From contig CAXXMV010000006.1 in NCBI GenBank assembly GCA_963662285.2, positions 864,001 to 928,000 of the forward strand: 64,000 nucleotides of DNA. The letters run 5' to 3'. This stretch comes from a bacterium (GTDB taxonomy: Bacteria > Hinthialibacterota > Hinthialibacteria > Hinthialibacterales > Hinthialibacteraceae). Below are positions 13,191 through 55,934 of the stretch, one piece after another. A model generated the notes under the pieces. The model was not told the DNA's origin. It searched no databases and worked only from the letters and a program-made list of their open reading frames with translations. The position numbers and the translations under genes are program-made. The stretch's first letter is position 1. Each line of letters opens with the position of its first letter.

Positions 13191-13286
13191 TATATTTGGC
13201 GCCATTAAAGATATTTGTCTAATATCAACATAAAACATATTATGATTTTCATTCACTTTATTTAATATCACTGGTGTAATGATTGT

Positions 13287-16115: not shown

Positions 16116-16225
16116 GAGATTTCCTCGATTGGGATTTTTTATATGGATGTTTCTGTATATTCCTGACATGTTTTTAACCTCTAATATATTTAATGATATT
16201 TCATGTGTTTTCATGGTTGATTAAT

Positions 16226-17026: not shown

Positions 17027-17602
17027 TTACCTCTGAGCCAGAGCTGATGGCGTGACTGGCTCTGGCTGTGCATTTAATAGATATGTCGTCAGCGTCATGG
17101 TTACATCAAGATCAGGTTTTTGAGGGTCTTTCAGTTTGCTTCTCAGTGAAGTTGGCTGACAAATGTATTTGGCATTTCTAATGCTATCAAGGAATTTTAC
17201 CAGTTGCTCGAACTGACACTCCAGTGATACCCTGATATCCAGGCGCGGCAGCGGTTTGGCGCGTTTGTTGGTGTTGGGATCCCAATTCTTTATTTTAACG
17301 CCGCAACGTCCGGCGACTTGCTCTATTTCGGCGATCAATTGAATTATTTCATTTTCGCTGGCGAAATTGCCTTCTTTATTGCCCAATTTTTTGCGCATTA
17401 TGTTGTTGCGCACTTTCTGGGTATCAATATCTTTCATCTGTGCAAAAAGTTCTGAAAAATGCACCGCAGTGTTTTCGGATAGGGCTGAATCGTCTGCCTG
17501 ATTGAAGAAGACGCCCCATCCCATAAATAATATGCCAATTGCGGCCGCAATTGCGGTGATTTTTGCAAGCCTTTGTTCCCGCTCGGATAAACTCATTACC
17601 AT
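17027..17602 (-). CDS. GspM/PilO-like inner membrane platform protein
   Basis: LSEREQRL + TM, coiled coil, ferredoxin-like C-terminus (VSLECQFEQLVKFLDSI); operon position. Confidence 0.8.
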   Translation of the reverse strand: MVMSLSEREQRLAKITAIAAAIGILFMGWGVFFNQADDSALSENTAVHFSELFAQMKDIDTQKVRNNIMRKKLGNKEGNFASENEIIQLIAEIEQVAGRCGVKIKNWDPNTNKRAKPLPRLDIRVSLECQFEQLVKFLDSIRNAKYICQPTSLRSKLKDPQKPDLDVTMTLTTYLLNAQPEPVTPSALAQR

Positions 17603-17636
17603 GAATCCCTTCGTTTTACAAAACTACCTCGTCAGC

Positions 17637-19133
17637 TTAACGGGAAGGTTGTAATTTGCCCCTTAAATATATGATGAATCCTTCTTTTTCGACTACAGAT
17701 CGATCTAGTACGATATCACGGAAGAACGGGCTATCATTCAATTTTTGTTGTAAATCGACTGCTCTTTGATTGTTGCCGCCTTTGAGCGCAATCTCCACGC
17801 CTGATTTGAAATCGAGATTGATGTTTTTGATCATGATTCCTTCGGGCAGGGTTTCGGCGAGGAAAAGGAATAACTCGGCGAAATTGACATTGGCGCTGAG
17901 CATCTGCCTCAATCCAACCTCTTCCAGTTGCAGTTTGTTCGAGAGTTTTATCAGGTCTTCGCCTTTATCAAGACGCGCTTCGACAGCATGGCTAAACCAT
18001 ATTCCCTTGCCAATCCACAGCACCAGGAATATCCCCGCCAACGAGCAAGCCATAGTAGTGAATTTTTTAGAAGGTAAAGCCGCCTCTGGCAGGAAATTCT
18101 TCCAGTTTACATTTTGCGCAGCATCTTCTAAAAGGTTTGGTCCGGCAATATCTCTGTTGAGTGAGCAATATGCAATGCACAGTAAGGAGAGATGGCCTCC
18201 AATGATATCATCATGTTTACCGGAAAAATATTTCAGGATATGGCTTTTGGTTACTTGCGATAGTTCCAAGCCATTATTGTGAGCTACGGTTTTGATGCGG
18301 TCGAATGACCAGTCTTCGAATCCACAGCACAACATCCCTTTGATCGATCCACGCGCAAAACGGTCAGCGGCATAATAGAGGGTTCGTTCGATTTCCTGCG
18401 CCAGCGAGTATTCTTCGGCGCCCGCTTCATCCAATTTTTGGCTTGCAGGGATATGACGTTTCAGAGGAACCGAGCGGGTCAGGTAAATCGCTTTACGGTC
18501 TGCGATAGTAATTGAAGCGCGTCCGTCTTCTTGAGTGATAATCATTGATGGTTCATCCAGGAACGAAGGATCAGCGCCGAGGATGTATTCATAATAACCC
18601 CAGAAGTCAGGTGTTACTTGAGTGGGCGCCAGGCGGTCTTCCGGCCACGAATGAAGTAATTCGTCAATGTATTCTTTGCGGGCGGCAACCCATAACAGCT
18701 GAGTTTTCTCTTCAGCTTCGCGACCCGAAGAGATCAACATATCCCATGATATATCCTCAATAGGAACATGCAGCGCTTCGGAAACTTCGAAGGATACCAG
18801 GTCGCTCAGCGTTTCTCCTTCCGCCGCCGGAGCTTCAAGAAAACGAGCGGTTAAACGGTGGCTGGGGGCGATTACGATAACTTCGTGTTTTGTCATCCAC
18901 CCCAGTTTCAGTTTACGGTTGATGGCTTGAAGCGCAGTTTGCAGAGCAGAAGAATCCTGTTTCAAAGGTTGCTCTGCATCTTCATTATTTACTATTGGCT
19001 CGAAACCGGCGCCCAGAATGTTAAGGGAGTCATTCTCCCTGAGGACTTCCAGCCAGTAGATGCCGGTGGATGCCGGTTGCAACAAGATGAGATGCATGGC
19101 CCGTTTTTCTGGTTTCATCGCAATACTTTCCAA
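17637..19133 (-). CDS. GspL-like (PilM-PilN type) platform protein
   Basis: Cytoplasmic PilM-like region (VSFEVSEALHVPIEDISWD, EIERTL), PNLL + TM, PilN-like LAETLPEGIMI...LNDSPFF. Confidence 0.78.
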   Translation of the reverse strand: MESIAMKPEKRAMHLILLQPASTGIYWLEVLRENDSLNILGAGFEPIVNNEDAEQPLKQDSSALQTALQAINRKLKLGWMTKHEVIVIAPSHRLTARFLEAPAAEGETLSDLVSFEVSEALHVPIEDISWDMLISSGREAEEKTQLLWVAARKEYIDELLHSWPEDRLAPTQVTPDFWGYYEYILGADPSFLDEPSMIITQEDGRASITIADRKAIYLTRSVPLKRHIPASQKLDEAGAEEYSLAQEIERTLYYAADRFARGSIKGMLCCGFEDWSFDRIKTVAHNNGLELSQVTKSHILKYFSGKHDDIIGGHLSLLCIAYCSLNRDIAGPNLLEDAAQNVNWKNFLPEAALPSKKFTTMACSLAGIFLVLWIGKGIWFSHAVEARLDKGEDLIKLSNKLQLEEVGLRQMLSANVNFAELFLFLAETLPEGIMIKNINLDFKSGVEIALKGGNNQRAVDLQQKLNDSPFFRDIVLDRSVVEKEGFIIYLRGKLQPSR

Positions 19134-20476
19134 TATCGAATTTCCGGTGGCTCGACTCCGCGATCCACAACGGCATAAATTTCTTTGTAAGCCCGCGAAC
19201 GTTCAATTTGTCCTGATGAGCGTGCGGAAAAGACGGATGATTTCGCGCAGATGCTTCCGTTAATGGTGATGAATTTACTTTTTGACATTCCCTGAATGTC
19301 CATTAACTCGCCGATATTGTCGAACGGCGCTTCGCTTGATTTACGGTATTCAATAATTTTTTCAACCAGGTCTTCATCATTGAACAGAATATTTAATACC
19401 ATTTTCGGCGCAGTGTTTATGTTTACTTTGCCGATCAAATTTTCTTCATCTGAAACAGTTATTTTATCGGCGATATTTTTGAATTTTTCTTTGCTGATGG
19501 ATATGCTGTTGGAATTAGTGTTATTATTCCGATTGTTATTTCTGTTATTATTGCTGTTGTTATTGGAATTACTGTTGACTGTTTTTTCCATCAGTTCGCC
19601 AATCGAAGCGAATTGCTCCTGGTCGCGTACTGATATAATGGCGTCGATTTCATCATCGGATAATTCGCTGCTAAACTGCTCTTTTAGTTTTTCCTTATTG
19701 GCTGTATTGATATTAATGCGGGCTTCTCCCTCGCCGGAGACATTTTTTTCATAAGAATAAGCTGTGATGTATGGATACCAGCCGCGTTCCAGCTCTCCAT
19801 CGCTGTTATCCAGGGGCGGCGTTTTGGCGCCATCGTTTTCATTGGCGTCGAGCAGGCCGTTGGTGTTGGTATCTTCTCCATAAAGCAGGTCGAGGGTCAT
19901 ACCCTTTACTAATAACATTTCCTCCACCGAATCGTAGAAAGCGTTTTTGGTCTGGTATGGTTCGGGTAATGTTTCGTAATATTCGCTTTCAGCGCCATAA
20001 GTTCCCGGATTGTCATCATCGTCGCGCCAATCGATTATAGCGTCAATGACTTCCTCTTCCGCATTAGGCAATCGAAGCAGGACATCCCGGCTGGCGGTAT
20101 TGATATTAATTTTACTGCATTCATCCACTGCGCCATATTCTATACTGTTTTCACTATCGGGCGTTGAGCGGGTCAGGCTATAAGTCCCGTTGCCTAACAT
20201 GACGTTTCCGAAGGCTTCAGAGTTTAGTGACCATGATTCGTCCAGGCTGTCATAAGTAGTTTCAGTTTTATCGTTAACCAACTCAGCCATCAGTCGATAG
20301 ATGCCGGCTTCGGCCAACATGCGCGCTTCACTGGCATTATTTGTATTACGATTTACTTGTAGAGAAAGTGTGGCTTGCCGGTTAAAAAGCATGGTAATTG
20401 AACCTAGCACCGCCACTATCCAAAGCACAATGATGAGAGCCATACCGCATTGTTGATTATGTGATTTATCTCTCAC
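19115..20476 (-). CDS. gspK: minor pseudopilin GspK with HhH domains
   Basis: G|MALIIVLWIVAVL prepilin site, DECSKININTA, AIIDWRD, EEMLLVKG, helix-hairpin-helix repeats; GTG start after AGGAGG (ORF track start 20506). Confidence 0.9.
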   Translation of the reverse strand: MRDKSHNQQCGMALIIVLWIVAVLGSITMLFNRQATLSLQVNRNTNNASEARMLAEAGIYRLMAELVNDKTETTYDSLDESWSLNSEAFGNVMLGNGTYSLTRSTPDSENSIEYGAVDECSKININTASRDVLLRLPNAEEEVIDAIIDWRDDDDNPGTYGAESEYYETLPEPYQTKNAFYDSVEEMLLVKGMTLDLLYGEDTNTNGLLDANENDGAKTPPLDNSDGELERGWYPYITAYSYEKNVSGEGEARININTANKEKLKEQFSSELSDDEIDAIISVRDQEQFASIGELMEKTVNSNSNNNSNNNRNNNRNNNTNSNSISISKEKFKNIADKITVSDEENLIGKVNINTAPKMVLNILFNDEDLVEKIIEYRKSSEAPFDNIGELMDIQGMSKSKFITINGSICAKSSVFSARSSGQIERSRAYKEIYAVVDRGVEPPEIRYWKVLR

Positions 20477-21164
20477 CGCTTTGTCCTCCTTCATCAGACG
20501 ACTCATTTGAATCTGAGGTTTGTCTGTAACTGGCTATCCAGACAGTAGTTGAGAACTTCTTTATATTCATCGGCGAAGGTTCTTCATTAGGTAGGCTGGC
20601 TTCGAAAAGCCCGATGGAAATATTTACCGCAATGGGTATGGCGCTTGATGAATCCCATTCGGGCCACCATGCTTCTCCATCAAAATATTGCAATTCGAGA
20701 GAGACCACGCGTGGCCCCAGCAGCGCCAGTTCCCCTCCGCTGAAGGGATCAGTATCAATGGTGTAGTCCATCCGGCGCAGCAGCCAGCGTTCGGGAGTGG
20801 TCTCGTCCAGATCGATATAATACTGGATTTCTGCGATATCACAGGCGCCAGCGCCTGTTTCGGCTGGATTGTTGACGCTGCTGATAAAAGTGAGACTGTC
20901 AGTATCAAGTTCGCCGGTCATCTGGTCGTATCCCACAAACCGGGTGACATCCTCATGCGGTGATAGGAAAGTCGCTTCCAGATCAGTACGCATACGGTCG
21001 AGAATCAGGCGGGCGGTTTCAGCCATATTGGTTTTACCGCCTAATTCTTTGTATGCTCTAAGAACAACAGACATAGAAGCAAAAGCGCTGCCTAACACCA
21101 TCGCTGTAATGGTGGCGGCCAGTAATAACTCAACCAGAGTAAACGCTTTTTGTCTGTTTTTCAT
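20466..21164 (-). CDS. gspJ: minor pseudopilin GspJ
   Basis: A|FTLVELLLA N-methylation site; LQYFDGEAWWPEWDS...PIAVNISI C-terminus. Confidence 0.85.
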   Translation of the reverse strand: MKNRQKAFTLVELLLAATITAMVLGSAFASMSVVLRAYKELGGKTNMAETARLILDRMRTDLEATFLSPHEDVTRFVGYDQMTGELDTDSLTFISSVNNPAETGAGACDIAEIQYYIDLDETTPERWLLRRMDYTIDTDPFSGGELALLGPRVVSLELQYFDGEAWWPEWDSSSAIPIAVNISIGLFEASLPNEEPSPMNIKKFSTTVWIASYRQTSDSNESSDEGGQSGER

Positions 21165-21234
21165 AATGGTTTAACGTTTGATATCTCTATATAATTCAAT
21201 CTTTAGCGTATTTTTTTTCTATCCGCCGCTTGAA

Positions 21235-21720
21235 GAGTCATATTCCTCTCCCAAGCCACTGATCCTTACCCACAAGTTTTGTTTGGATTCATTGCCTCCT
21301 AACATTGTTGGGTATTTCTTTACAAGGGTGGTCGTTATCAACCCTCTCCTAACCTCTCCCAATCTTGGGAGAGGAATGTTAGACCACGGTGTTTTGTATG
21401 ACTAAGTCAAAATGATATAGCTGGTTATATCTGCAAAATCCCTCTCCCCCAAGTTGGGGGAGAATTCAAGAGGGGGTTGTTTTCTATAACCTTAGATTTT
21501 TCAATTGGCGTTATAATCATAATCTAATAGTTGTTTTTAGGATTATAGGTGGACTCAATCAAGGGTAGAAAATACACTACCCTTGCCACCCGGTATTCTC
21601 TAATCCTTAACCCATAAAATATTATTTATATTTGTGGGTTAAGATCAGCCCAAGCCTGGGGGAGGTTAGGAGGGGGTTGCGCAACCCCCCTCTAACTCCC
21701 CCCAGGCTTGGGGGGAGAAT
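21235..21720. repeat. mosaic of short palindromic repeats inside the T2SS operon
   Basis: CCCTC-type elements (21341-21376, 21438-21478, 21648-21720), a CAAGGG-family element (21547-21592) and an inverted CTGATC(C)TTA(A)CCCACAA pair. Confidence 0.7.
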
Positions 21721-21731
21721 ACTATATATAT

Positions 21732-22217
21732 TCATCTACCGCTTGAACTTGAACTGCTTTTGGAACTTGAACCGCCGCTGGAAGCATCTTCCGCCATACT
21801 GAAATAATGGTACGTTGTATACTTTAATTCGTGGTCTCTGCTTCCCCTCTTCCACATAACTTTCATTTCCACTTGATAGAGGTCAGTCATATCGGTGTAT
21901 AAATAAGTTACAGTCCATTTAAAGCCGGACTGAGTGGTAAATTCGCCTTCGTTTGTATCATAAGGAGAGAACTGATTCGTACGTAGATTGCCATGCAGTT
22001 CTCCAATCAGCGTTGATGCTATGGAGTAATCCTCCGAAAGTTTCCCCGTCATAATTGATGCTGAGAATGTAGTCAGAATGCTGGTCACCGCAATTCCAAG
22101 AATTGTCATGGCCAGCAGCGCTTCCACCAATGAAAAAGCTGCCGCGCCGCGACTTTCTTTAGTGCGTTTAGCGGTGCAGATAAAAACTGACAGATTATTG
22201 ATAAACCATTTATTCAT
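21732..22217 (-). CDS. gspI: minor pseudopilin GspI
   Basis: A|FSLVEALLAMTILGIA; GFKWTV...DLYQVEMKVMW; true start may be downstream. Confidence 0.82.
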   Translation of the reverse strand: MNKWFINNLSVFICTAKRTKESRGAAAFSLVEALLAMTILGIAVTSILTTFSASIMTGKLSEDYSIASTLIGELHGNLRTNQFSPYDTNEGEFTTQSGFKWTVTYLYTDMTDLYQVEMKVMWKRGSRDHELKYTTYHYFSMAEDASSGGSSSKSSSSSSGR

Positions 22218-22223
22218 AACTAC

Positions 22224-22787
22224 TTACTCATAAAAACTCTCTGTCATACGGTTCCAGACCATGACTTGCCCGGTTAGTCCCACGATACCCACTGTATAAG
22301 TGTTTTCGTACTTATCTATCATATATATGAAGGTGTCAGACGTTGTCCCGTCTGGCTGGAAAGTGATTTCATTTTCCTTTTGCGAACCGGATAAGGTTCT
22401 TTTATCTATCTTGGCTATAGATGTATCTGTGCGGTATTTTTTGGGATATTTAATCGGCAGACGAACTGGTTCATACGTACCTGGAGCATTAACCGGATCG
22501 CTTTCAATAGATATCTGAATTATTCCGGTTTCCTGATCAAATAAAATCTGGGTTACGGCGCTGCGTTCAATGGCCAGACTCCTGGTATATCTCAGGATAT
22601 GGCTCAAGGTTTGCGCGGCGTGTTTGAGAGTGGTTCCTTCAAGAAACGGTTTGAACATAGGCGTGATGCCGCCCAGCATGATAGCCATTAAAGTAATGAC
22701 CAGCAGCATCTCCACCAGAGTGAATCCTCTGGAGAATATCCTGGGATTGTTATCCCGTTTAATATCAAGTCTTTCTTTGTTATTCAT
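22224..22787 (-). CDS. gspH: minor pseudopilin GspH/FimT-like
   Basis: G|FTLVEMLLVI; LRYTRSLAI; ITFQPDGT; GLTGQV. Confidence 0.85.
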   Translation of the reverse strand: MNNKERLDIKRDNNPRIFSRGFTLVEMLLVITLMAIMLGGITPMFKPFLEGTTLKHAAQTLSHILRYTRSLAIERSAVTQILFDQETGIIQISIESDPVNAPGTYEPVRLPIKYPKKYRTDTSIAKIDKRTLSGSQKENEITFQPDGTTSDTFIYMIDKYENTYTVGIVGLTGQVMVWNRMTESFYE

Positions 22788-22800
22788 TATCTTTTATATG

Positions 22801-23072
22801 CGGGCGCCAAGGGCAGTGTATTTTCTGCCCTTGATTGAGTTCACCTCTTTTATTTCCAAAATTCTTATCAACGATCCAAGTAAAAGTAAGATTCATCATT
22901 CACTTAATATTTTCGGCAAATGTATTCATGTCTCTCAAATTTAATATAAGATAGATCATTAAGTTGAATTTATTGTTAATTTGTAAAAAATCATAGAATT
23001 AAATCCATGTAACTATAGTTACCAGTCAAGGGCAGAAAGGACACTGCCCTTGGCACCCGCTTGGGGGAGAAT
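22801..23072. repeat. inverted pair of CAAGGG-family palindromes around an AT-rich spacer (REPIN-like)
   Basis: CGGGCGCCAAGGGCAGTGTATTTTCTGCCCTTGATTGAGTTCACCT (22801-22846) and inverted TCAAGGGCAGAAAGGACACTGCCCTTGGCACCCG (23026-23059); other copies at 21547-21592, 62012-62051, half copy 3111-3126. Confidence 0.78.
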
Positions 23073-23093
23073 TTGAGTCTTAATGCTAACAAA

Positions 23094-24323
23094 TTAGTTG
23101 ATCATCTTCCCTATGTTAAGAATTGGCAGGAGGAAAGCGAATAAAACTCCACCTACGCCAATAGCCATAAGAATAATAACCATCGGTTCAAAAAGGGTGA
23201 TGAATCGTTTGATGGCGTGCTGTACTTCCTGATCGTATGTTTCGGCCACCTGATCCAGCATTTCATCAAGTGAGCCGGATTCTTCGCCCACCGCGATAAG
23301 GTTAGTAACCATAGGGGGGAAAAACCCAGTCTCTTTCAGGGGTGATGCAAGTCCCTGACCTTTCTGGACTTTCTCGCATACTTCCCGTAAACAACGTGAA
23401 AGAATTGAACTGGAAGTCGTGTCAACCATCAGGTTAAGAGATTGCAAAACCGGGATGCCGCTTCTTACCAGGGTTCCCATGGTTCGCGAGAATCGGGCGA
23501 TTTGCGCTTTTATGAGCATGGTCCCGATTAAGGGAAGCCGTTCGCATATTATATCCAGCGTCTCCTTACCTTTGGGAGTGTTCTTAATCTTGCGAAAGCC
23601 ATATCCCAATCCGATCATAATCAACAGAATCAACCAGGAATAACCTAATATTACATCGCTGGTTTTAATTAATACTCGCGTTAAAAGCGGTAGTTTATCG
23701 CCGAAATCCGCAAAGACAGAACTAAGCCGGGGGATGACGAATGCCACCAGCATGAAAATTGAACCGATTCCAACCACTACCACCAGCAATGGATAAGCCA
23801 GAGCGGTGAGAATATTGGAGCGAAGCGCGTTTTCGGCCTCCATAAAACTGGCCAGTTGCTTTAATACGACATCAAGCACTCCGCCGGACTCTCCGACGCG
23901 GATCATACTGCAATAGAGACGGCTGAAATGTTTGGGGTATTTGCCTAATGCTTCAGATAAACTGGCGCCTTCATGAATTCGATGACGCAGGTCGCCAATT
24001 ATGTCCGACATTGAGCCGCTTTCCGATTGTTCTTCAAGGATGGAGAGCGCCTGCGACATGACGATTCCCGCTTTGAGCAGAGCGCCTAACTGGCTGGTGA
24101 AAACCAGCACATCGCGGGATGTGATTCGTGAACGGCGGCTTTTAGTAGTTTTGGATGCTATGTTTTTGGCGGAAATAGATAGTTCTTCGCCTTCCTTAAC
24201 GCCAAGAGGTCTCAGGCCAAGGTCTTTGATCTGATTGACCGCTTCTTGCCGGTTTTCCGCTGTCAGCGTCCCTGAAGATGTCTGGCCTTCCGTAGATAAG
24301 GCGCGATATGAAAAAATTGGCAT
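23094..24323 (-). CDS. gspF: T2SS inner membrane protein GspF/PilC
   Basis: MPIFSYRA, FTSQLGALLKAGI, GESGGVLD, ALAYP, GEESGSLDEML, FEP; 3 TM. Confidence 0.95.
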   Translation of the reverse strand: MPIFSYRALSTEGQTSSGTLTAENRQEAVNQIKDLGLRPLGVKEGEELSISAKNIASKTTKSRRSRITSRDVLVFTSQLGALLKAGIVMSQALSILEEQSESGSMSDIIGDLRHRIHEGASLSEALGKYPKHFSRLYCSMIRVGESGGVLDVVLKQLASFMEAENALRSNILTALAYPLLVVVVGIGSIFMLVAFVIPRLSSVFADFGDKLPLLTRVLIKTSDVILGYSWLILLIMIGLGYGFRKIKNTPKGKETLDIICERLPLIGTMLIKAQIARFSRTMGTLVRSGIPVLQSLNLMVDTTSSSILSRCLREVCEKVQKGQGLASPLKETGFFPPMVTNLIAVGEESGSLDEMLDQVAETYDQEVQHAIKRFITLFEPMVIILMAIGVGGVLFAFLLPILNIGKMIN

Positions 24324-24549
24324 AGTTATTCCCGTTTATAATATTAAACGCATGAAAATTACATCTGGTTTCAATAATCTTTGGTTTTTGTTAAAATAAA
24401 TAATATGCAACCAAAGGCATCGCTGAGTAGTAATAGAGGTTAATAAATACTTATTCCTATCGAAAACGCCGGATTTGTTCGAAATCCCATCTTTTTTGAC
24501 TATGAACTACAGTTTGGACGCAGGTTATTTTGAGAAAATCTCAATATAT

Positions 24550-26232
24550 CTATAGATTAGATATTTCGTCTTCCTGCGTAACGCGTATTATCTCTTCCAC
24601 TGTCGTTGTTCCATCCAAGACTTTTTGCCATCCATAATCTCTGAGATTCTTGATGCCCGCCATTTGATGAACCTGATTGGATGAAGGTCTCGTGAGAATC
24701 AATTCTCGAAGTTCATCATTGATGGGCAGCAGTTCGAAGATGCCGTTGCGTCCTTTGTAGCCTTGATTATGGCAAAACTCGCATCCTTTGCCCTTGTAAA
24801 CCTGCTGGCCGGGGGGGATTTGCAAACCGGCGAGACGTAGCAATTCCGGATCGGGGGTATAGGGTTCCTTGCATTTTGAACAATTAACCCGGATCAGGCG
24901 CTGCGCCAGAACGCAGGTGACGGCGGAGGATATCAAAAACGGATCGACTCCCATATCCATAAGCCGGGTAATGGCGCCGGAGGCATTGTTGGTATGAAGC
25001 GTACTGAAGACCAGGTGTCCGGTCAGCGCAGAACGGATAGCGATTTCCGCCGTCTCAAAATCGCGGATTTCACCAACCATGATGATGTCGGGGTCCTGAC
25101 GGACTATAGCGCGTAGTCCGTTGGCGAAGGTTAATCCACGTTTGGGATTAACCTGCATCTGGTTGATGCCTTCGATGTTGTATTCTACTGGATCCTCGAC
25201 AGTTACGATTTTTACCGTAGGATTTTTTATGACGTTCAATCCCGCATATAGGGTAGTTGTTTTACCTGAACCGGTTGGACCGGTGACCAGTATGATGCCA
25301 TAGGTTCGGTTGAGGATCCGTTCGAATTGTTCCTTCATGTCCGGATAGAAGCCCAGGTCGTCAATCTGGATCAAAACATTGGTTTTATCCAGGATGCGCA
25401 TTACCACGCTTTCGCCGTGGACGGTCGGTATGGTTGAAACGCGGAAATCAAGTTCCCTATCGGACATGCGCAGCCGAATATGACCATCTTGAGGGGTGTA
25501 GCGTTCAGCGATGTCCATCTCTGACATAATCTTGATGCGCGAAATGACGGCGGGCTGCAAATGCTTGGGAGGGGGTGGAATCTCGCGCAGCATACCGTCG
25601 ATGCGGTAGCGGATTTTCAGTTCGTTCTCGAAAGGTTCGATATGAATATCGCTGGCGTCTTCTTGCACCGCCTGAAAGATAATCAGGTTAACCAGGTTCA
25701 CTACTGTCGGTTCGCTGGCTAATTGGTGCAGATCGGAAATATTATCAGAAACTATAATCGGGCTGTCTTCATCGCTCGGGCTGAGGTTGGCGATCATCTT
25801 TTCGATGCTGGCCCCGAAATAGCGCTCAATATTTTCTAGTAGTTCTTTGCGCCGCGCCAAGACGATTTCTATTTCAAAGCCGGTCAACATGCGTAGATCG
25901 TCGAACACCTGCAACTCGCTGGGATCGACCGCCGCGACGGTCAGCGAGCCATTCTCTTTGATTAACGGAAGGATGCAGTGCCGCAAAGCGAATTCCGCTG
26001 GCACCAGATTGACTACGCTGGGAAGTATCTTTTTCGGTATTTCCACCCAGCGAACTCCAGTCGCCTGGCTTTTGGCGTCCAAAAGACTGTCTTCATCAAT
26101 GTAATGATGGCGCAGTATAATATCTTCAAGGCAGTCGCCGGTCTCCTGTTGCTCCTGCCGGGCTTTTTGCTGCTTCTCTTCAGATAGAAGTCCGGTATCA
26201 ATTAATACGTTCAATAGGTCAGCATCAGTCAT
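24550..26232 (-). CDS. gspE: T2SS ATPase GspE/PilB
   Basis: ASDIHIEP, Walker A GPTGSGKTTT, TVEDPVEY, RQDPDIIMVGEIRD, TGHLVFSTLHTN, CxxC...CxxC. Confidence 0.96.
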   Translation of the reverse strand: MTDADLLNVLIDTGLLSEEKQQKARQEQQETGDCLEDIILRHHYIDEDSLLDAKSQATGVRWVEIPKKILPSVVNLVPAEFALRHCILPLIKENGSLTVAAVDPSELQVFDDLRMLTGFEIEIVLARRKELLENIERYFGASIEKMIANLSPSDEDSPIIVSDNISDLHQLASEPTVVNLVNLIIFQAVQEDASDIHIEPFENELKIRYRIDGMLREIPPPPKHLQPAVISRIKIMSEMDIAERYTPQDGHIRLRMSDRELDFRVSTIPTVHGESVVMRILDKTNVLIQIDDLGFYPDMKEQFERILNRTYGIILVTGPTGSGKTTTLYAGLNVIKNPTVKIVTVEDPVEYNIEGINQMQVNPKRGLTFANGLRAIVRQDPDIIMVGEIRDFETAEIAIRSALTGHLVFSTLHTNNASGAITRLMDMGVDPFLISSAVTCVLAQRLIRVNCSKCKEPYTPDPELLRLAGLQIPPGQQVYKGKGCEFCHNQGYKGRNGIFELLPINDELRELILTRPSSNQVHQMAGIKNLRDYGWQKVLDGTTTVEEIIRVTQEDEISNL

Positions 26233-27860: not shown

Positions 27861-27925
27861 AGAGTCTAACAAAAAACAGTCCACCCACCCCAGGGCGGCT
27901 TGTGACCGGATTTGCCTGGAATATT

Positions 27926-28981
27926 ATGGATTTGAAAGAGCGTGCGTTCTCTCCATCTGAATATGCAGATAAAAAAGAACTGCGCCGCTTTATGCGTGAA
28001 AAACGATCTCTGCAAGATCCCCGCGCTATGCAGTTGAAGAATCAGCGAATTGCTGAACGTTTTATCTCTATCCCCGAATTTGCTGATGTTTCATCTATAG
28101 CGCTCTATGCCTCTCTCTCAGATGAATCTCAAACTTATGCTATTGCTTCGTATTGCTTACAAATGGGAAAGTCCATTGCCTTTCCATGCATAGAAGAGAA
28201 AGACATAGTTTTTCGCCAGGTGAAAGATCGAGAAAAAGAGTTGCGCTTACAGGGTTCTTTCGGCATCCGTGAACCGGATAAAGATCTATGTCCTATAGTA
28301 CCTATTGAAGAGATTGATCTGTTCGTTATTCCTGGAGTTGTATTTGATATCTTCGGCTCGCGCATCGGATTCGGCGGTGGATATTATGACCGGGCGTTGG
28401 CTCAAAAACGGTCAGATGCATTGTCTGTCGCCCTTGCCTTTGAGTTTCAAGTGGTTCATGCAATCCAATCTGAACCGCACGACCAGCTGGTTGATATGAT
28501 TGTTACCGATGCAACGGTTTATGCTCCACGGCAATCAATTCACCTATGTAATTCGGAAAAGGATACTCAAACCTTTGCCAAACGGTTGTTTATGAAAGGG
28601 CTTCGGGAACAGGAAATTATTGCTTTACATGCTGACTTAGGCGTCGGTAAAACTGTTTTCGTCCAGGGTTTAGCCGATGCTTTAGGCGCCAATGATGATG
28701 TAATCAGCCCGACATTCATGTATAGCCGTGAATATCAATCCAACCCGCCTTTGACGCACATGGATGCTTATCGTTTGGATAATCTTGCTGATGTAAGCGA
28801 TCCGTTCTGGACGGAATTATTGGATCATCGCGGCATTTTGGCTATAGAATGGGCTGAACGGCTGGGCAGCCGGTTGCCTAAAAGCGCCATTCACTGTTTT
28901 GGAGAAATTATTGATGATCAAACCCGTCAATGGACCCTCTTTACAGCTATTAATGAACATAACCAATTAAATGAGATATAA
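27926..28981 (+). CDS. fusion: 5-formyltetrahydrofolate cyclo-ligase (YgfA) + t6A ATPase TsaE
   Basis: N-half KKELRR, FGIREP, IDLFVIPGVVFD, RIGFGGGYYDR, EPHDQLVD; C-half ADLGVGKTVF, ISPTF, HMDAYRL, IEWAE; precedes tsaB; GTG at 27902 is an alternative start. Confidence 0.9.
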   Translation: MDLKERAFSPSEYADKKELRRFMREKRSLQDPRAMQLKNQRIAERFISIPEFADVSSIALYASLSDESQTYAIASYCLQMGKSIAFPCIEEKDIVFRQVKDREKELRLQGSFGIREPDKDLCPIVPIEEIDLFVIPGVVFDIFGSRIGFGGGYYDRALAQKRSDALSVALAFEFQVVHAIQSEPHDQLVDMIVTDATVYAPRQSIHLCNSEKDTQTFAKRLFMKGLREQEIIALHADLGVGKTVFVQGLADALGANDDVISPTFMYSREYQSNPPLTHMDAYRLDNLADVSDPFWTELLDHRGILAIEWAERLGSRLPKSAIHCFGEIIDDQTRQWTLFTAINEHNQLNEI

Positions 28982-31345: not shown

Positions 31346-33403
31346 TTAATACAAAGACCAGTGATTAACCTCGACGGGTCCTGCGGCGCCGTGGAATGTT
31401 GCGTCGCGTCCGTTGCCGCTGATGTCGGTTAGAACGCCTTCTTCCATCTGGCGGGAGGTATAATACATCATTAAGCCGTTATCTTTCATTTCGCTGATAT
31501 TTTCCTCTTCGGGAGGCGTTCCCAGCAATGCTTGAATCTCGGTTTCGCTTAGGGCGCGGTTCCAAATTCGGATGTTTTCCATGGCGCCTTCATACAATGC
31601 GCCGTCTTCTGATAATGCGCCGATATACAGAGGCGTTCCGCCCCAGGGGAGCATGCCGAAGGCGTCCACGTCATCCACCAGCACTCCGTTGTAGTAGAGT
31701 TTCATTAATTCCATGTCGTAAGTTCCGCATAGATGCACCCATTGTCCGGCGGGCGGCATGGGGGCGGCGGCGTCTCCGGCATCTGGTACGAACATGTGGA
31801 TGCGGTTGCCGTACTGTGATCCTCCAAACAGACTGAATTCTTCACCAGAGCCGCCGCGGCCTACGATGCCCAGATTCGTCATTTGGCGGTCATGGAAAAC
31901 GGGAGTCAAATTCACCCAGGCCTCGATTGTGATATAGTCTATTTCAAATAAATCCGGATCATCAAAAACCGCGTAATTGGTTTGGCCGTCGAACACGATG
32001 CCTTGTTCAGGTTTAAAGGCCAGATGCGACTCATCGATTTCAAAGGCGCCGAAAGTCCCATCGTTGCCATTGCCGGTCAGGTCGATTAACTGGTCGCCAT
32101 CCACTGAGCGGGACGCCCAATAGGCGATCAATCCATTGGTTTTCATGGCCTCGATATCTTCATCTTCCGGCTTGATTTTTAACAAGTTCAGGATTTCTTC
32201 TTCGGTCAGCGCTTTATTCCAGATTTTCATATTTTCCATCTGGCCGTCCAGGTGACGGCTGCCCGGTTCCAGGGCGCCGAGGTACAATGGCGCGTCGCTA
32301 TCAAGCGGTTGTCCCGGAGCAGAAGATTCATGCTGCAAAATGCCGTTGTAGTATAGCCTTTTGGTTCCATCATCCGTGCGGACACCAACGATGTGAATCC
32401 ATTCATTAGCCGGTGGGACAGGGCCGTTGGCGTGACTGTATCCGCTTACATCTTCGACCAGGAACCTAATCCGGTCGTAAAGATAAAAGGTGAATAAGTT
32501 GGGCGCCCCGCCGCGGTTCATGAATACCTGATTTTCGTGCATGCGGTCGAATTTTACCCAAACTTCAAGAGAAAACGCGGATAGATTAAATGGCGTTCCA
32601 TCCTCGATCTTGACGTAAGTGCTTTGCCCGTCAAATGAGATTCCACCATCAGGCATGAAGGTCAGATTGCTTTGATCAAGGGTATATGTTACTTTGGCTG
32701 CATTGTTGTTTCCGGCCAGGTCATTAACCGTGTTATCTTCAACCGAACGTTGCGACCAATAAGATATCAAGCCATCTGATTTCATTTGATCGATATTCTC
32801 ATCAGCGGGTTGAGTGGCAAGCAATGCGGCGATTTCGGCTTCGCTAAGCGCGCGGTTCCAGATGCGTAAATTTTCCAGCATCCCATTTAGGTGCCGATCT
32901 CCCGGTTCCAACGCGCCAATCATTAAAGGTTCTTCACCATAACGAGTGACTGCTTCCCAGGCGGTTTCAGCAACCAGAATGCCATTATAATACAGTCGCA
33001 CAAAGGCTCCATCAAAGACGCCGGCCACATGCACCCATTCGCCTGCGGGGAAGATTTCGGTTATGGCTGATTCATGGCCATTATCAACATTCTCGACCAG
33101 AAAACGTCCGTTGCCGTTATCGGCGTATAGAGTGAAATATTCTCCTCCGGCGCCCCGTCCGGCGATTTGCTGGCGGCCAGAGTTGTCGCGTAAATTGACC
33201 CAGGTTTCCACTGTAATCGCGTCAACGTTGAAATCATCGACTGTCGTCACCTGTAAAAATTCCGTAGTTCCATTGAGCGAGATGCCGCGTTCCGGTTTCC
33301 AGGTGAGTTTAGATTCATCCAACTGAGCCTGACAGACTGAACTTAAACCCATAATGAATAAACCAACGAAAGTTACGCTCCATATTCTTTGCCAATGTTT
33401 CAT
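31346..33403 (-). CDS. exported protein with three LamG-like jellyroll domains and C-terminal V-x-x-W-x-L-Y motif
   Basis: Signal peptide (CQA-Q); three repeats with T(V/I)E.WV, W.H..G.(F/Y)D...LYYNG, EN..IWN.AL...EI; ends VEVNHWSLY. Confidence 0.88.
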   Translation of the reverse strand: MKHWQRIWSVTFVGLFIMGLSSVCQAQLDESKLTWKPERGISLNGTTEFLQVTTVDDFNVDAITVETWVNLRDNSGRQQIAGRGAGGEYFTLYADNGNGRFLVENVDNGHESAITEIFPAGEWVHVAGVFDGAFVRLYYNGILVAETAWEAVTRYGEEPLMIGALEPGDRHLNGMLENLRIWNRALSEAEIAALLATQPADENIDQMKSDGLISYWSQRSVEDNTVNDLAGNNNAAKVTYTLDQSNLTFMPDGGISFDGQSTYVKIEDGTPFNLSAFSLEVWVKFDRMHENQVFMNRGGAPNLFTFYLYDRIRFLVEDVSGYSHANGPVPPANEWIHIVGVRTDDGTKRLYYNGILQHESSAPGQPLDSDAPLYLGALEPGSRHLDGQMENMKIWNKALTEEEILNLLKIKPEDEDIEAMKTNGLIAYWASRSVDGDQLIDLTGNGNDGTFGAFEIDESHLAFKPEQGIVFDGQTNYAVFDDPDLFEIDYITIEAWVNLTPVFHDRQMTNLGIVGRGGSGEEFSLFGGSQYGNRIHMFVPDAGDAAAPMPPAGQWVHLCGTYDMELMKLYYNGVLVDDVDAFGMLPWGGTPLYIGALSEDGALYEGAMENIRIWNRALSETEIQALLGTPPEEENISEMKDNGLMMYYTSRQMEEGVLTDISGNGRDATFHGAAGPVEVNHWSLY

Positions 33404-33451: not shown

Positions 33452-34003
33452 TTAAGGCCCGAATCGGTATATATCTCCATCGCTTCGCAATCCATTGCTT
33501 AAATCAAACCACAACAGGTATTGTTTTTCGGTGGATTCAAAATCCTGATCCGGCCCGAAACTCATGATACACCATCCACCTTTTTGCTGTTTGATGGATG
33601 CCATGGCCGGATGGTCGAACCAGGTACTCGTACGACGGTGGTTCATAGTGTCCGGTCCCCAAAATGGATAAACCGCGTTTGGTTCAATATCTATGGTGTT
33701 AAAAACATCCCGCACGCTGGCTGACATATATGCCACTGGAGTGGTTAAGCGTTTGAAGCGTAATTGCCGTGGATTGATAAACGTAGTGGAATCTGGCCAA
33801 TAGGTATTGGGGTATGAACCTTCATCGATCATGTACATTTCTATAGCTGTTCCGATAGCTTTCATGTTGCTTTCGGTAGCGGCCACTTTAGCGCGAACCT
33901 GAGCATTGAGAAAATTGGGTACGGCGATGGCTGCCAGGATGCCAATGATTGCTACAACGATCAGTAATTCGATTAGGGTAAAACTGAATTGTCTATTATG
34001 CAT
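33452..34003 (-). CDS. GspG-like major pseudopilin / prepilin-type protein
   Basis: S|FTLIELLIVVAIIGILAAIAVPNF, NMKAIGTAIEMY..DEGSYP, LTTPVAY, SFGPD, SNGLRSDGDI. Confidence 0.88.
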   Translation of the reverse strand: MHNRQFSFTLIELLIVVAIIGILAAIAVPNFLNAQVRAKVAATESNMKAIGTAIEMYMIDEGSYPNTYWPDSTTFINPRQLRFKRLTTPVAYMSASVRDVFNTIDIEPNAVYPFWGPDTMNHRRTSTWFDHPAMASIKQQKGGWCIMSFGPDQDFESTEKQYLLWFDLSNGLRSDGDIYRFGP

Positions 34004-50204: not shown

Positions 50205-50343
50205 CTCGCAAAAAAATCCTTCTCAGTATAAGTGTTGTTATTAATACGTATTGGCGAATTGCTGTTGCTGAAAATATTGTATTATGATATATTTGGTTTA
50301 ATCATTGTTGTGTATAACTTTTTACATCATCCAGGGGGGATTC

Positions 50344-53300
50344 ATGAGAACAACAACACGACTGATTATATCTAATCCAATCATTTGTTTGATCATATTA
50401 TTAACCTATGCTTCCAGCGCAGTTTGCTCCACTCTTGATATGATGGCTGATATATCGAAGCCAGTAGTTACCGAATTCGCGGAATATCAACCTGAATTGA
50501 TTGATATCACACCATCGGTTGAGCCATACAAAATCGCTGATGATTTCAGTAATGTTTGGAATTTCGATCAATTTCAATTTTCGGATGAACAAAAGCGGTT
50601 GCTTCTCGAAAATGGTTTCGTCGCCGTGCAAAGCGATGATAAGGAGATGTATGAGATTTACAACCGGGCGCTTAAAGAGAATACGCCTATCTTTGTTACG
50701 GTAGACGCCCTGCTTCATGCTTTCCACGAACAATTCGATTACATTCTGCGCACCCTCGAAACCGACAGGTTCATTTCTCATATACAACAGATGACCATCG
50801 CCCTGATCGATGGCTCATTGGAGCAATATAACGAGGCCGCCGATTCCCGCGTTAAAGAAGCAGCGCGCAAAAACCTCGCCTTTTTCTGTGTTGCGCTTGC
50901 CATGCTTGATGCTGACTATGCTGCTCCCGCATTGGTCGCGGAACTGGTTGCGTCTGAATTGCAACTCATCGACGCTCACAATAGCATGACGCATTCTCCG
51001 TTGCGTGGTTATGCGGAAGACTACACCCAGTACGTCCCGCGTGGGCACTATACTCTTTCAGAAGACCTGAAGCGCTATTTCCGCGCCATGATGTGGTATG
51101 GCCGAAGCACGTTTCATAACAAGGAAACAGCATTCTTAGGCATTACGCATGACATGGCGGAAATGGAAACCATTCAGGCCTTGCTGGTTACTCAATTGAT
51201 GAACATATCATCCATAGGCGACAATTCGGTTTTGGATCTATGGCGACAAGTATACCTTCCCACAGTCTTCTTCGTCGGCCAATCCGATAACCTTAATATC
51301 GACGATTACACCAGCGCTGCGCTGGATGTCTACGGCGCAGATTTCACCACCCTACCCGTAGATCAATTCAGCGACGCTGATAACCTGGATGCTTTCATGA
51401 ATTACCCCACCCGCCCGGCGTCGCAAATCAGCGCGGATGTCTGGGGCGGTGGATTCAGCATCATGGGTCAGCGTTTTATCCCCGATTCCTACATTATTGA
51501 TAAACTGAATTTTCTTGAAGAAGCCCGTTTACCCAGCGGTTTGGATGTCATGTCCGTATTAGGCTCAGAGCGCGCCAAAGAGATACTGACTCAATCCGGT
51601 TTATACACAGAGATGTATGCAGAGAAGCATGATAAATTGTACCAGGAATTCTTGGATAAAGATGAATCAGTCTGGGCCCAAAATGTATATTGGAACTGGT
51701 TATATTGCTTAATGCCCATGCTGGCCGACAAGGAAGAAGGCTTCCCCTTTTTCATGCAGAACGACGCATGGCGCGACAAGGATTTATCCTGCGCCCTGGG
51801 TTCATGGGCTGAACTGCGGCACGATACGATTTTATATGCCCGGCCTAGTGCTGTCGGTAGTGCGGATAACTCATCTAATGCTTACAAATCGGAGTACGTC
51901 GAACCAAATCCCTGGGCTTTTGGTCGTCTAGCATCCTTAGTGCGCTATACCATTGATGGACTAAATAATCTTAACCTTATTAAAGATTTCAAATTTTCGG
52001 ATAGAATAAATGATCTGTATGAGATTTCATCATCATTACAAACTATCTCTTTGAAAGAACTGACAAACCAACCTTTAACAATCAATGAATGTAAATTTAT
52101 CCGTGGAATTGGAGATCCTTTGACATTGTTGTGTACTATCTTTGACGAGGAAGATGATAATTATTTTCCTGATGTACGTCCCGATGGAGAGAACATGGAT
52201 GATATGTCGTTAATTGCTGATATCCATACTGACTTGATAATTGGAGAAGCCTTGGAAATTGGCGTAGGTCGCCCATTAACGATATACGTCATAATCGGAG
52301 AAGGGGATAATTTGTCGATTTCCGTGGGATCAGCTTTTTCCTATTACGAATTCGGTCAACCCATGAATGACCGGCTGACCGATGAAGCATGGCGTAAAAT
52401 GCTGAATGAATCAGAGCAGCCGCCGCAACCAAGTTGGGTGAGCAGTTATATGGGAAATAATAATACACCGGATAATATTGATAAGAACGATAGGATAAAG
52501 AGGATATCCTCACCTGTTAGAGAAATGAATTATCTCATTTCGCCCTCTCTGCTTGCACAAGGAGAAAATCTAACGGCCCGGTTTGTTTTTGATGCAACAG
52601 AAATATATAGAAATATCGAATACTATGAAAAATATAATTATCCTTGCTATATACCCGGTATGGATTCTTACTTCGTCCAAATTATTTTAGGGGATCGTAT
52701 TCTAGTTATTGAACTCGAAGAAGATGTTCTAACCGATGAACCTTTCGATTATTCCGCCGTCATAAATACGGACGACTGGCCAACCGGAACCTATGATCTA
52801 TTATTCTATAGCCCCACCAATCTAGCGATTTACGCAAACAAGCAGTTCACGGTTTATGAAAGCGTCGAGCAAATTCCTACCTTAACTCCAACATTCACCC
52901 AGACGCCAACTCCAACTCTAACACCTATACCAACCGCGCCCCCTAATCCGGTTTATATGACGGATACCATGAATGATTCCCAATCGATAGTCTATGATTT
53001 CGATCCACCCTGGCAACGGGATATCATTATTCGTTGGGATTTCACGAAACAATATCAGAGTTATATGATAATGGTGAAAGTAAATGATAATGGTGAATTC
53101 CAGAATCTAGGCGAAACTGTCGGGAGTGAGAATTTCTTCGAGTGGAGCATCGATAATAAATATGGCCAAATCATTGCAGAAGAGTTTTTGGATGGACCTC
53201 AACTAAATACCGATTACACCTTCTCCATCTATGGGAGCAATAGGCGTTACTATTGGTTTTTATGTGAATCTTTCACCTTTCATTATAAAATTGATCAAAC

Positions 53301-53406
53301 GGCGCCCACGCCCACATTAACTCCATCCCAGACGCCAACACTCACGCCGACACCTACGCCGACATTGCCCCTGGTCAGCGTTGATGATTGGTTTTTATAT
53401 GATTGA
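50344..53406 (+). CDS. exported DUF3160-domain protein with Pro/Thr linkers and C-terminal V-x-x-W-x-L-Y motif
   Basis: LLLENGFV, PIFVTVDALLHAFH, DYTQYVPRGHYT, YFRAMMWYGR, GSWAELRHDTILY, YVEP, RLTDEAWR; PT repeats; ends VSVDDWFLYD; AGGGGGG RBS before 50344. Confidence 0.87.
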   Translation: MRTTTRLIISNPIICLIILLTYASSAVCSTLDMMADISKPVVTEFAEYQPELIDITPSVEPYKIADDFSNVWNFDQFQFSDEQKRLLLENGFVAVQSDDKEMYEIYNRALKENTPIFVTVDALLHAFHEQFDYILRTLETDRFISHIQQMTIALIDGSLEQYNEAADSRVKEAARKNLAFFCVALAMLDADYAAPALVAELVASELQLIDAHNSMTHSPLRGYAEDYTQYVPRGHYTLSEDLKRYFRAMMWYGRSTFHNKETAFLGITHDMAEMETIQALLVTQLMNISSIGDNSVLDLWRQVYLPTVFFVGQSDNLNIDDYTSAALDVYGADFTTLPVDQFSDADNLDAFMNYPTRPASQISADVWGGGFSIMGQRFIPDSYIIDKLNFLEEARLPSGLDVMSVLGSERAKEILTQSGLYTEMYAEKHDKLYQEFLDKDESVWAQNVYWNWLYCLMPMLADKEEGFPFFMQNDAWRDKDLSCALGSWAELRHDTILYARPSAVGSADNSSNAYKSEYVEPNPWAFGRLASLVRYTIDGLNNLNLIKDFKFSDRINDLYEISSSLQTISLKELTNQPLTINECKFIRGIGDPLTLLCTIFDEEDDNYFPDVRPDGENMDDMSLIADIHTDLIIGEALEIGVGRPLTIYVIIGEGDNLSISVGSAFSYYEFGQPMNDRLTDEAWRKMLNESEQPPQPSWVSSYMGNNNTPDNIDKNDRIKRISSPVREMNYLISPSLLAQGENLTARFVFDATEIYRNIEYYEKYNYPCYIPGMDSYFVQIILGDRILVIELEEDVLTDEPFDYSAVINTDDWPTGTYDLLFYSPTNLAIYANKQFTVYESVEQIPTLTPTFTQTPTPTLTPIPTAPPNPVYMTDTMNDSQSIVYDFDPPWQRDIIIRWDFTKQYQSYMIMVKVNDNGEFQNLGETVGSENFFEWSIDNKYGQIIAEEFLDGPQLNTDYTFSIYGSNRRYYWFLCESFTFHYKIDQTAPTPTLTPSQTPTLTPTPTPTLPLVSVDDWFLYD

Positions 53407-54228: not shown

Positions 54229-55344
54229 TCAATATAAGTCCCATCCAATCACATCGGTGGTAAAATCACGGGAAAGAATGTAAAAAGCCACTTCGGGACG
54301 GTAATACAATGGGTCGTTAGGTAGTTCAACCATTGGTGAATAACCGATTAGCGCCCACTCTCCTTCCTCCAATTCAAATCCAAAACTATCCGGCCAATTA
54401 GTACCTGCATCGCCGCCCTCAAGTTCTGGATCATTATCACAATATAAGTAAGTCATAGGCTGGTCGGGTAGAAATTCATTCCAAGTCGTCCGGCTATTGA
54501 AAACCAGTGAAGGGTGAAACGGGTCTTCCGGGATTTCATCCAGATATCCGAAATGCACCAAAGGTTTTAACACGCTGTTTTTGGTGCGTTCTCCTCCTTC
54601 CACGCCTTCAAAGACATCATCAATTCGTTGTATTAGATGGCTATCATCATCCCAGAAATCAACCAGAAGAACGCCTTTTTCAGTGCGCAGTCTTTCAATA
54701 GCTCTCCCGATCTGCATCATATTTTCTTTAGATTTTTGGAGATATTCTTCAGCATTTTTCGGTTGAGATATAACTTGACTTTTATGAACGGTGAGATTTC
54801 GAGTTCGTGATCGGTCATAGGTTTTATTCTCTCCCGGACTGATCAAAACCCACTCATCCATCTGTACATAAAGGCTTAACATGAGTGTGAAATAATCAGT
54901 CTGATATTTTGTTTCGTTGATATTAATTGTGCTTTCTTCATCAAAATATATATAAGTATTAAAATCTGGATCGGAATCCTCTGGAATAAAAGGATCAATG
55001 GGTATTACATCCAAATAGCCGAAATGAACCAATGGCTGTAAGACGTCGAGCATGGTTCTGGGTCGGTCGCTTGGATTGCCGACATTTTCAAATTCTTCAT
55101 GCAGCCGCTTTTGACCGATTTCCGAATCATCGTCGATCAGGTCTACAAGTTTAACGCCTCGCTCTTCTTCAAAGCGGATAATAGCATCGCCGATTTTCAG
55201 CATATCACTCAATGCTTGTTCCACTTGGGAATTGGTCTCTTGAGATACAGCATTCAATGAAAATAAACAGTAGATACACATGCAAACAATAATCTGAAAT
55301 ATACAAATAGACTGATGTACCTGTTTAACTTCTTGAGATTGCAT
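54229..55344 (-). CDS. exported protein with two tandem pseudopilin-head-like domains and C-terminal V-x-x-W-x-L-Y motif
   Basis: Signal peptide (LNAVS-Q); internal duplication M..IG.AI.R...E.GV.LVD..DDDS...VL.PLVHFGYLD.IP.DPF...TY.Y.D...EW.LI; ends TDVIGWDLY; AAGGAG RBS. Confidence 0.75.
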   Translation of the reverse strand: MQSQEVKQVHQSICIFQIIVCMCIYCLFSLNAVSQETNSQVEQALSDMLKIGDAIIRFEEERGVKLVDLIDDDSEIGQKRLHEEFENVGNPSDRPRTMLDVLQPLVHFGYLDVIPIDPFIPEDSDPDFNTYIYFDEESTININETKYQTDYFTLMLSLYVQMDEWVLISPGENKTYDRSRTRNLTVHKSQVISQPKNAEEYLQKSKENMMQIGRAIERLRTEKGVLLVDFWDDDSHLIQRIDDVFEGVEGGERTKNSVLKPLVHFGYLDEIPEDPFHPSLVFNSRTTWNEFLPDQPMTYLYCDNDPELEGGDAGTNWPDSFGFELEEGEWALIGYSPMVELPNDPLYYRPEVAFYILSRDFTTDVIGWDLY

Positions 55345-55934
55345 AATAACATCTCCTTAAGTCATTGAGGATTTGACGTAATCTATATTGATAAATCCCT
55401 CTTGGCATAATTAAATTTCTGCATGATTCGATAGAGGTTATCAAAAGGTTATACTTATTTGAAGTAAAATTTTGTTTGAATTCTCGTCTTTGGAGGATTA
55501 TTTACCAACCTCATAAACGCACGATGTTTTTGATACATCTTTAGATAAAGAGATTAAATAGTCGGTCGAGCAATTGTTGGGGTGAAGATAGATAATACGA
55601 TAACTAACTATATAGGAACTTATACCACCTACGACGTTTAGCCTTCTATGTACATCTTTTCTGGTGATTTGTGCAGTTAACCTTTAATAAAAGGCTGGAC
55701 GAGAAGTAAATCAATAGTATAATTTATAGCGCTATAGAGTTCATTATGGCCATAAAATGGAAATATTTTGCCAATAGATGGTAGATGCATAATGTCATAT
55801 CCAAATTATCGGCCTGAATTCGCCAAATAATGTAAGCAAATCGTTTCAATAACAATAAATTAACTTAATTGATCTTTTTAGTATGCTAAAATAGTATTCC
55901 AGAGTCATTTTTAACATAAATAAAGGCGGTACAG

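Follow-up and report, generated by a model that had tools for sequence, protein, structure and literature searches.

A secreted, anchor-less protein with two pilin-like heads and a W-x-L-Y tail in Candidatus Hinthialibacterota

The window analyzed here (64,000 nucleotides) contains, on the reverse strand at 54229..55344, a gene for a 371-residue protein that was delimited by open reading frame listing and homology. Its ATG start codon is preceded at a distance of 8 nt by a ribosome-binding site read from the sequence (AAGGAG, 55353..55358), and a promoter and terminator scan remained at chance level. All features of the protein named below are likewise encoded on the reverse strand. The N-terminus constitutes a putative Sec-type signal peptide (residues 1–34, 55243..55344, with a predicted cleavage site), as indicated by hydropathy, a model helix at residues 2–35, and similar N-termini in homologues; its hydrophobic stretch reaches 2.95 (12-residue Kyte-Doolittle mean) and ends NAVS-QE. 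Two pilin-like heads follow: head 1 (residues ~37–193, 54766..55236), assigned by homology and fold search and the more diverged of the two, and the GspG-like head 2 (residues ~195–358, 54271..54762). By motif comparison, head 2 has a conserved acidic site whose first half is D-F-W-D-D-D (residues 229–234, 54643..54660) and whose probable second half is D-N-D (residues 303–305, 54430..54438), and D68, D71, R80, R96, and D135 are retained in head 1. The 13 residues remaining after head 2 carry a C-terminal tail, T-x-V-x-x-W-x-L-Y (residues 363–371, 54232..54258), which ends W-D-L-Y, lies outside the pilin fold, and is unstructured in the monomer model. A first-pass annotation made from the letters of the sequence had quoted several motifs, all of which are present in this reading frame, and had described two internal repeats of about 135 residues. 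The repeats are borne out by BLASTP (40/81 residues identical, 49%, E 8e-20), their length is not: the period amounts to 157 residues, with PLVHFGY occurring at residues 104 and 261. The same annotation correctly held that the prepilin helix has been replaced by an ordinary signal peptide, since the N-terminus is hydrophobic and the protein matches no Pfam or NCBIfam family, including those for the prepilin motif (PF07963, TIGR02532). No membrane helix was found by hydropathy beyond the N-terminal stretch (after residue 60).

Modeling of the whole protein, with seven sequences in the alignment, gave a weak result (pLDDT 60, pTM 0.41) that does not fix the relative orientation of the heads. Head 2, modeled with a 64-sequence alignment, reached pLDDT 83, with the tail free, of low confidence, and not observed to pack back onto its own head. 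The comparison to GspG/PulG structures that had been proposed as a check ranked EpsG and PulG first at Z values of about 7: EpsG matched residues 195–357 of the whole model (Z 7.0, rmsd 2.3, 89 aligned; PulG 6.0) and the separate head 2 model (Z 7.1, rmsd 2.6, 92 aligned), with PulG at 6.0–6.3 across both fold searches. For head 1, the best counterpart was Clostridioides difficile PilA1 (Z 5.6, rmsd 3.1, 93 aligned, residues 37–191). In both fold searches all five structural rows with Z of at least 5 were (pseudo)pilins, no enzyme was found among the top rows, and the nearest ESM Atlas cluster was T2SSG-like (0.93). Since Z values of this size are middling and neither model obtained a Foldseek match at E ≤ 0.001 (E 0.27 with the head 2 model), the fold is assigned from sequence homology together with the uniform ranking of pilins.

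This homology leads to a defined group of pilins. Among 20,698 six-frame open reading frames of the genome, 13 single-head prepilins match the two-head protein at E 1.4e-31 to 8.7e-9, the next match lying at 0.042. All 13 carry an L-L-x-D-x-W-D-D-D insert and form the "DxWDDD" subfamily, which is part of the ~108 GspG-fold family pilins encoded in the genome. A profile of 99 heads detects the two-head protein at 1.9e-10, and a profile of 86 heads from which the 13 relatives were omitted still does so at 1e-4. Judged from these sequence relationships, each repeat is derived from the DxWDDD subfamily. By eye, the repeats had been aligned to the head of the anchored family pilin encoded at 33452..34003 (reverse strand). 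When hhalign was run via an alignment rich in pilins, it recovered the register of that comparison (99.5%, 152 columns), whereas direct similarity was insignificant both by phmmer (E 4.6) and against a profile of two-head proteins only (probability 15% over 37 columns); profile comparisons thus make this pilin a distant relative outside the DxWDDD subfamily. The broader proposal that pilin heads have been reused in a secreted, anchor-less protein is upheld by the 13 paralogues, by the fold ranking, and by the tree described below.

Of 35 genomes of the phylum, 5 contain two-head genes and 34 contain matching pilins. A search of a library clustered at 50% returned 82 matches, two of which (P0077 and P0082, both long repeat proteins) were discarded as chance. 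This library and an earlier homologue search yielded nine full two-head proteins and two fragments. The tail is terminal in seven of the nine, lies nine residues from the end in another, and is missing from one whose gene is located 20 nt from a contig end. N-terminal add-on domains precede the heads in three of the nine; C-type-lectin-like domains were detected in two homologues (E 4e-4 and 8e-3, below cut-off) and a cohesin-dockerin-cohesin arrangement in one (cohesin/dockerin 2e-21 and 4e-6, plus weak LamG-like matches). A form of 1107 residues exists, although a dedicated search for longer forms, which found none among 6033 candidates, had missed it. Homologues were absent from 199 viral stretches and from 108 metagenome contigs, where five pattern matches scored nothing beyond the motif itself. 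At the four loci read, the gene stands solitary among unrelated housekeeping genes that differ from locus to locus, and neither a pilus operon nor a defence context was seen there. A quick-search tree was built from 95 heads (19 two-head domains and 76 pilins, with frameshifted and partial pilins excluded from alignment and tree) and may be subject to long-branch attraction. A single branch (SH-aLRT 98) sets all 19 two-head domains apart, head 1 and head 2 are each grouped (100 and 82), and 10 non-subfamily pilins are placed elsewhere (99). The simplest history suggested by these sequences is that the two-head form arose once: the anchor was lost a single time and the head was then duplicated within the gene, rather than two pilin genes being fused. 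Relatives (L012, L013, L024, L036, and L042) have tandem arrays of three subfamily pilin genes and, in L024, of seven family pilin genes.

The W-x-L-Y tail, which the first-pass annotation had described as appended, is a real feature. In this genome, 158 of 4564 called genes of at least 150 codons end in W-x-[LIMV]-[YFH] where 4.8 are expected, as opposed to none of 653 shadow reading frames. A hydrophobic N-terminus without a later membrane helix is found in 141/158 tail proteins versus 1242/4299 other genes, and an aliphatic residue at position -3 in 145/158 tails versus 120/407 other W-ended proteins. Many tail proteins resemble secreted enzymes. Two further examples, identified by domain search, lie within the window: a LamG-domain protein (31346..33403, reverse strand), which by gene order adjoins the 33452 pilin, and a DUF3160 protein (50305..53406, forward strand). 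The DNA pattern of the tail exceeds its reversed control in 35/35 genomes, weakly in a few, and remains at control level in two Sumerlaeota genomes (1 vs 3 and 4 vs 3), in which no clear giant K (see below) was found. Pilin genes adjoin tail genes more often than in 500 shuffles (23/108 versus a mean of 6.6 and a maximum of 17); pilins of the DxWDDD subfamily are not enriched there (2/13 versus 21/95 of the rest). Among the 158 tail proteins, only the two-head protein contains a pilin head. It had been considered the most direct link between the tail and the pseudopilus family, a view that does not hold, as the protein is a passenger and gives no proof of such a link; the connection between tail and pilus rests instead on the adjacency of pilin and tail genes and on the truncated giant K.

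A T2SS-like operon in the window (11343–26232) encodes E, F, H, I, J, K, and a secretin; since the stretch from E to K contains no GspG gene, the gene for its fibre subunit must lie elsewhere. This subunit may be supplied by the family pilins, and the giant cassette described below may serve as an alternative tip. The genome has several type IV filament systems, as matches over cut-off to secretins (eight) and PilT-type ATPases (three) indicate, so that more than one machine is a candidate for serving the 108 pilins. Other architectures also occur in this genome. A BlaR1-type peptidase M56 membrane protein, L190:600-2486 (G000:C2:1684099-1685988), carries a family pilin head at the C-terminal sensor position (Pfam T2SSG over cut-off), and two membrane-anchored proteins of ~430 residues (L191:410-1702 and G000:C2:873777-875048) end with only the last hairpin and the S-N-G loop of the pilin family. 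Window positions 27902–28981 encode a 5-formyltetrahydrofolate cyclo-ligase/TsaE fusion, both domains over the Pfam cut-off, whose gene precedes a TsaB/TsaD-family gene and an acetyltransferase gene.

A precedent for the reading of a C-terminal strand is provided by PilC/PilY1. The last ~10 residues of these proteins are described as completing the sheet of a K-type minor pilin, whereas GspK supplies its own strand (PMC13533445); the PilC/PilY1 strand consists of W, either one charged residue or two, and after these a hydrophobic residue (PMC13533445, PMC13711793), its tryptophan being conserved and required (PMC13711793). The ordinary GspK of the window, assigned by domain search and alignment (19115..20506, reverse strand), possesses a last strand with the hydrophobic spacing of the tail. 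In 29 GspKs of the phylum this strand follows the pattern P-x-[IF]-x-x-[WY]-x-V-[LIV]-R-stop, and both its hydrophobic spacing and its distance to the end recur in the tail consensus, T-x-[VI]-x-x-W-x-[LI]-[YFH]-stop. A giant K of 2129 residues is encoded in an H-I-J-K cassette that lacks a motor of its own (G000:C1:1054334-1044118). The surrounding region, L094:3696-15335 (G000:C1:1042692-1054334, reverse strand), encodes oversized Asp-rich minor pilins of 268, 508, 458, and 2129 residues. Giant K was found in 35/35 genomes, in 29 with a single-protein query and in the other six with an alignment, and all 33 ends inspected stop at the penultimate strand of GspK, in a register assigned by hhalign at E 2e-4 and a probability of only 46%. 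A long K profile aligned to GspK only in its helix-hairpin part, and a search of solved structures with GspK returned nothing on the last strand. By analogy with PilY1, the tail may thus complete giant K in trans.

The gene directly after giant K encodes a conserved 437-residue signal-peptide protein, full-length in 28 of the 35 genomes, that ends N-L-[YF]-[YF]-R-E in family f1. Its end resembles the PilY1 strand, which makes it the obvious candidate for a house donor. Scoring with a GspK-strand matrix placed 22 tails in the top 200 versus 6.9 expected, partly via the shared W; the tail of the two-head protein ranks 1360th of 4564 and the house donor 1001st, the low rank of the former arising from exposed residues that are acidic where those of GspK are basic. 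In the seven genomes of family f6, giant K is present in 7/7, the five ends seen are all truncated, and tails exceed the reversed-pattern control in 7/7 (11–51 vs 1–8). A full-length 437-residue donor was not detected in these seven genomes, which is not proof of its absence; the presence of giant K and tails without a detected donor keeps the idea of K as reader alive. Since the co-occurrence of tail and giant K spans a single phylum, it counts as one observation.

The strongest competitor retains the same passenger and sends it along another route, in which giant K receives its strand from the 437-residue protein and something else reads the tail, the two-head protein being released or surface-bound rather than locked at the tip. 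The reader could then be sought in the giant inserts of K/J/I, among the ~108 family pilins, in an orphan short K, or in a separate export system. Besides the presence of a dedicated donor candidate in 28/35 genomes, such a route would account for the tail charge, which is opposite to that of the GspK strand, for the 158 tail proteins facing one copy of K, and for pilin genes lying beside tail genes 3.5 times more often than after shuffling. An orphan K-like protein of 215 residues that likewise ends without a last strand is a further point in its favor; this K/PilX-like gene (L188:1694-2338, G000:C8:1391190-1391837), apparently truncated in this manner, is located just downstream of the gene for a tail-like protein. 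However, the seven f6 genomes have giant K and tails without a full-length donor having been found, and the spacing shared by the tail and the last GspK strand would have to be a coincidence. Taken by itself, the choice between giant K and another reader is close to even; the other route as a complete account appears rather unlikely.

The function of the heads was approached by a motif comparison of 9 head 1 domains, 10 head 2 domains, 66 subfamily pilins, and 86 other pilins. Three motifs of the expanded pilin family of OLB16, R-A-K, T-x-P, and S-N-G-x-x-S-x-G, are not found in the two-head protein (the genome belongs with OLB16/Candidatus Hinthialibacterota, the phylum to which PMC9324843 assigns both OLB16 and SURF_12). 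Two-head domains have lost R-A-K, which opens the head helix in 83–95% of pilins; the invariant proline of T-x-P is deleted in 19/19 heads; and [STA]NG of the loop near the C-terminus occurs in 0/19 heads versus 65/66 subfamily and 84/86 other pilins (149/152). In contrast, D229, D232, R240, and R253 (head 2 numbering) are retained in 19/19 heads and D303 in 18/19, while at position 305 head 2 has D and head 1 mostly E. Among subfamily pilins 98% carry D229, versus 29% of other pilins, a contrast that is partly circular at the kept residues because the subfamily set was collected by likeness to the query; invariance among the heads of proteins that are only 39–49% identical stands outside that circularity. 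Read from sequence and topology, the lost motifs would serve fibre assembly, and the kept residues would come together in three dimensions as a metal or ligand site. GspG heads are known to bind Ca2+. The combination of motif loss with a kept acidic site speaks for a binding module in two copies rather than for a cap.

A pilus cap or adaptor, one of the functions first suggested, would use the two heads to mimic consecutive subunits, either on the end of the fibre or in bridging it to cargo. In its favor, both heads have kept the pilin fold and are joined through a short linker. Yet the family-wide motifs are lost in 19/19 heads, the gene occurs in only 5/35 genomes against 35/35 for giant K, its neighbors are unrelated housekeeping genes rather than a pilus operon at 4/4 loci read, and the model (pTM 0.41) does not fix how the heads are oriented to each other, which renders a structural role improbable. 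A decoy that is released to soak up pilus-binding phages had also been envisaged and fares slightly worse: the protein is soluble, patchily distributed, and copies a pilus surface, but only that of one subfamily (13/108 pilins), its kept residues are invariant rather than variable, lectin and cohesin domains accompany homologues, no defence context was seen, and nothing positive was found for this idea, which is thus very improbable. Least probable is a secreted enzyme with a metal-dependent hydrolase site on the pilin head, since, despite D, D, R, R, and D being invariant or nearly so in 19/19 heads and many tail proteins resembling secreted enzymes, no enzyme is found among the top structural rows and the same site on 10–21 fibre-type pilin matches per f1 genome fits binding better.

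The two-head protein shares features with several known systems without belonging to any of them. The fold of GspG/PulG/EpsG (PDB 4LW9, 1T92, 5WDA; PF08334) is common to each of its heads, but it lacks the prepilin helix, contains two heads, a signal peptide, a tail, and a long D-x-W-D-D-D insert after helix 1, and falls below Pfam detection. With respect to type IV pilins, head fold and prepilin homology are present, whereas the class III signal (F-x-x-x-E5) and the anchor helix are absent, and in three two-head homologues the heads come after other domains. The DxWDDD subfamily, for which no named family was found, is the direct ancestor and has the acidic site in common; its members are single-head prepilins with the S-N-G loop. 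Two pilin-like domains per chain are also present in C. difficile PilJ, which appears in both fold searches (Z 4.3 and 4.5) and, in PMC9556784, is described as a dual-pilin fold that enters the fibre through its N-terminal domain, as a normal pilin does (PDB 4IXJ). Unlike PilJ, the two-head protein is anchor-less and its heads are a recognizable duplication (49% identity over 81 residues). Like PilC/PilY1 as described in PMC13533445 and PMC13711793, it combines a Sec signal peptide and passenger domains with a terminal Trp-containing strand. It differs from PilC/PilY1 in having no beta-propeller, a mature length equal to two pilin heads, no match to PF05567, and a gene away from the minor-pilin operon (4/4 loci), its docking being deduced; moreover, it is one of 158 tail-bearing proteins rather than one of one or two. 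For PilY1-like strand addition, the 33/33 truncated K ends and the spacing match have to be weighed against the competing donor encoded next to K and the poor rank in the matrix scoring. In style, the protein is a PilY1-type passenger or lectin-like adhesin; it is not a member of the PilY1 family and no longer a pilin. The ~70-residue C-terminal domain of T9SS cargo (TIGR04183) is unmatched in the protein, which has only 13 residues beyond head 2, and genome searches for PilY1, this domain, and SprA gave no matches, with control genomes silent too. Sortase- and exosortase-type tails (LPXTG, PEP-CTERM) comprise a motif, a membrane helix, and a basic end; here, no helix follows residue 60 and no NCBIfam family matches. 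A literature search of article texts found no paper on the two-head protein, the W-x-L-Y tail, or the giant cassette, and no anchor-less, duplicated pilin head with this tail; reuse of pilin heads as such is not unprecedented, given the dual fold of PilJ and the other architectures in which this genome reuses them.

The explanation we favor combines three parts, to which as a whole we assign a probability of roughly 45%. In the first and firmest, one DxWDDD pilin gene would have lost its anchor, undergone an internal duplication, and acquired both the W-x-L-Y tail and a signal peptide; the evidence shows the product to be, very probably, a Sec-exported passenger of that origin. In the second, somewhat favored by the pattern of lost and kept residues, the heads would no longer polymerise and would form a bivalent binding module, acting as an adhesin or capture module through the acidic, probably Ca2+- or metal-dependent site inherited from the subfamily. 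In the third and more tentative part, a type IV filament machine would read the tail from the periplasm, most likely by accepting it in trans as the beta-strand that is missing at the end of a K-type tip pilin, and the protein would be carried to or through the outer membrane. A wider and still more speculative extension is a plug-and-play type IV filament, with fibres built from the ~108 pilin paralogues and a giant K that takes its last strand from any of ~160 unrelated exported proteins, the house protein serving as default plug.

The two-head protein represents a pilin head that has left the fibre to serve as a free domain, and shows that the family-wide motifs are given up in this step and an acidic site is kept. 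It constitutes a soluble handle on what the expanded pilins of the phylum bind, and giant K is a concrete candidate reader for the tail carried by 158 proteins. If the plug-and-play extension is true, a pilin surface would have gone from the fibre and come back as cargo at the tip, and the W-x-L-Y tail would act as a transplantable linear signal that targets proteins to a T2SS/pilus tip. The choice of cargo by type II secretion and pilus machines is a long-standing question, on which a signal of nine residues that can be grafted onto other proteins would bear.
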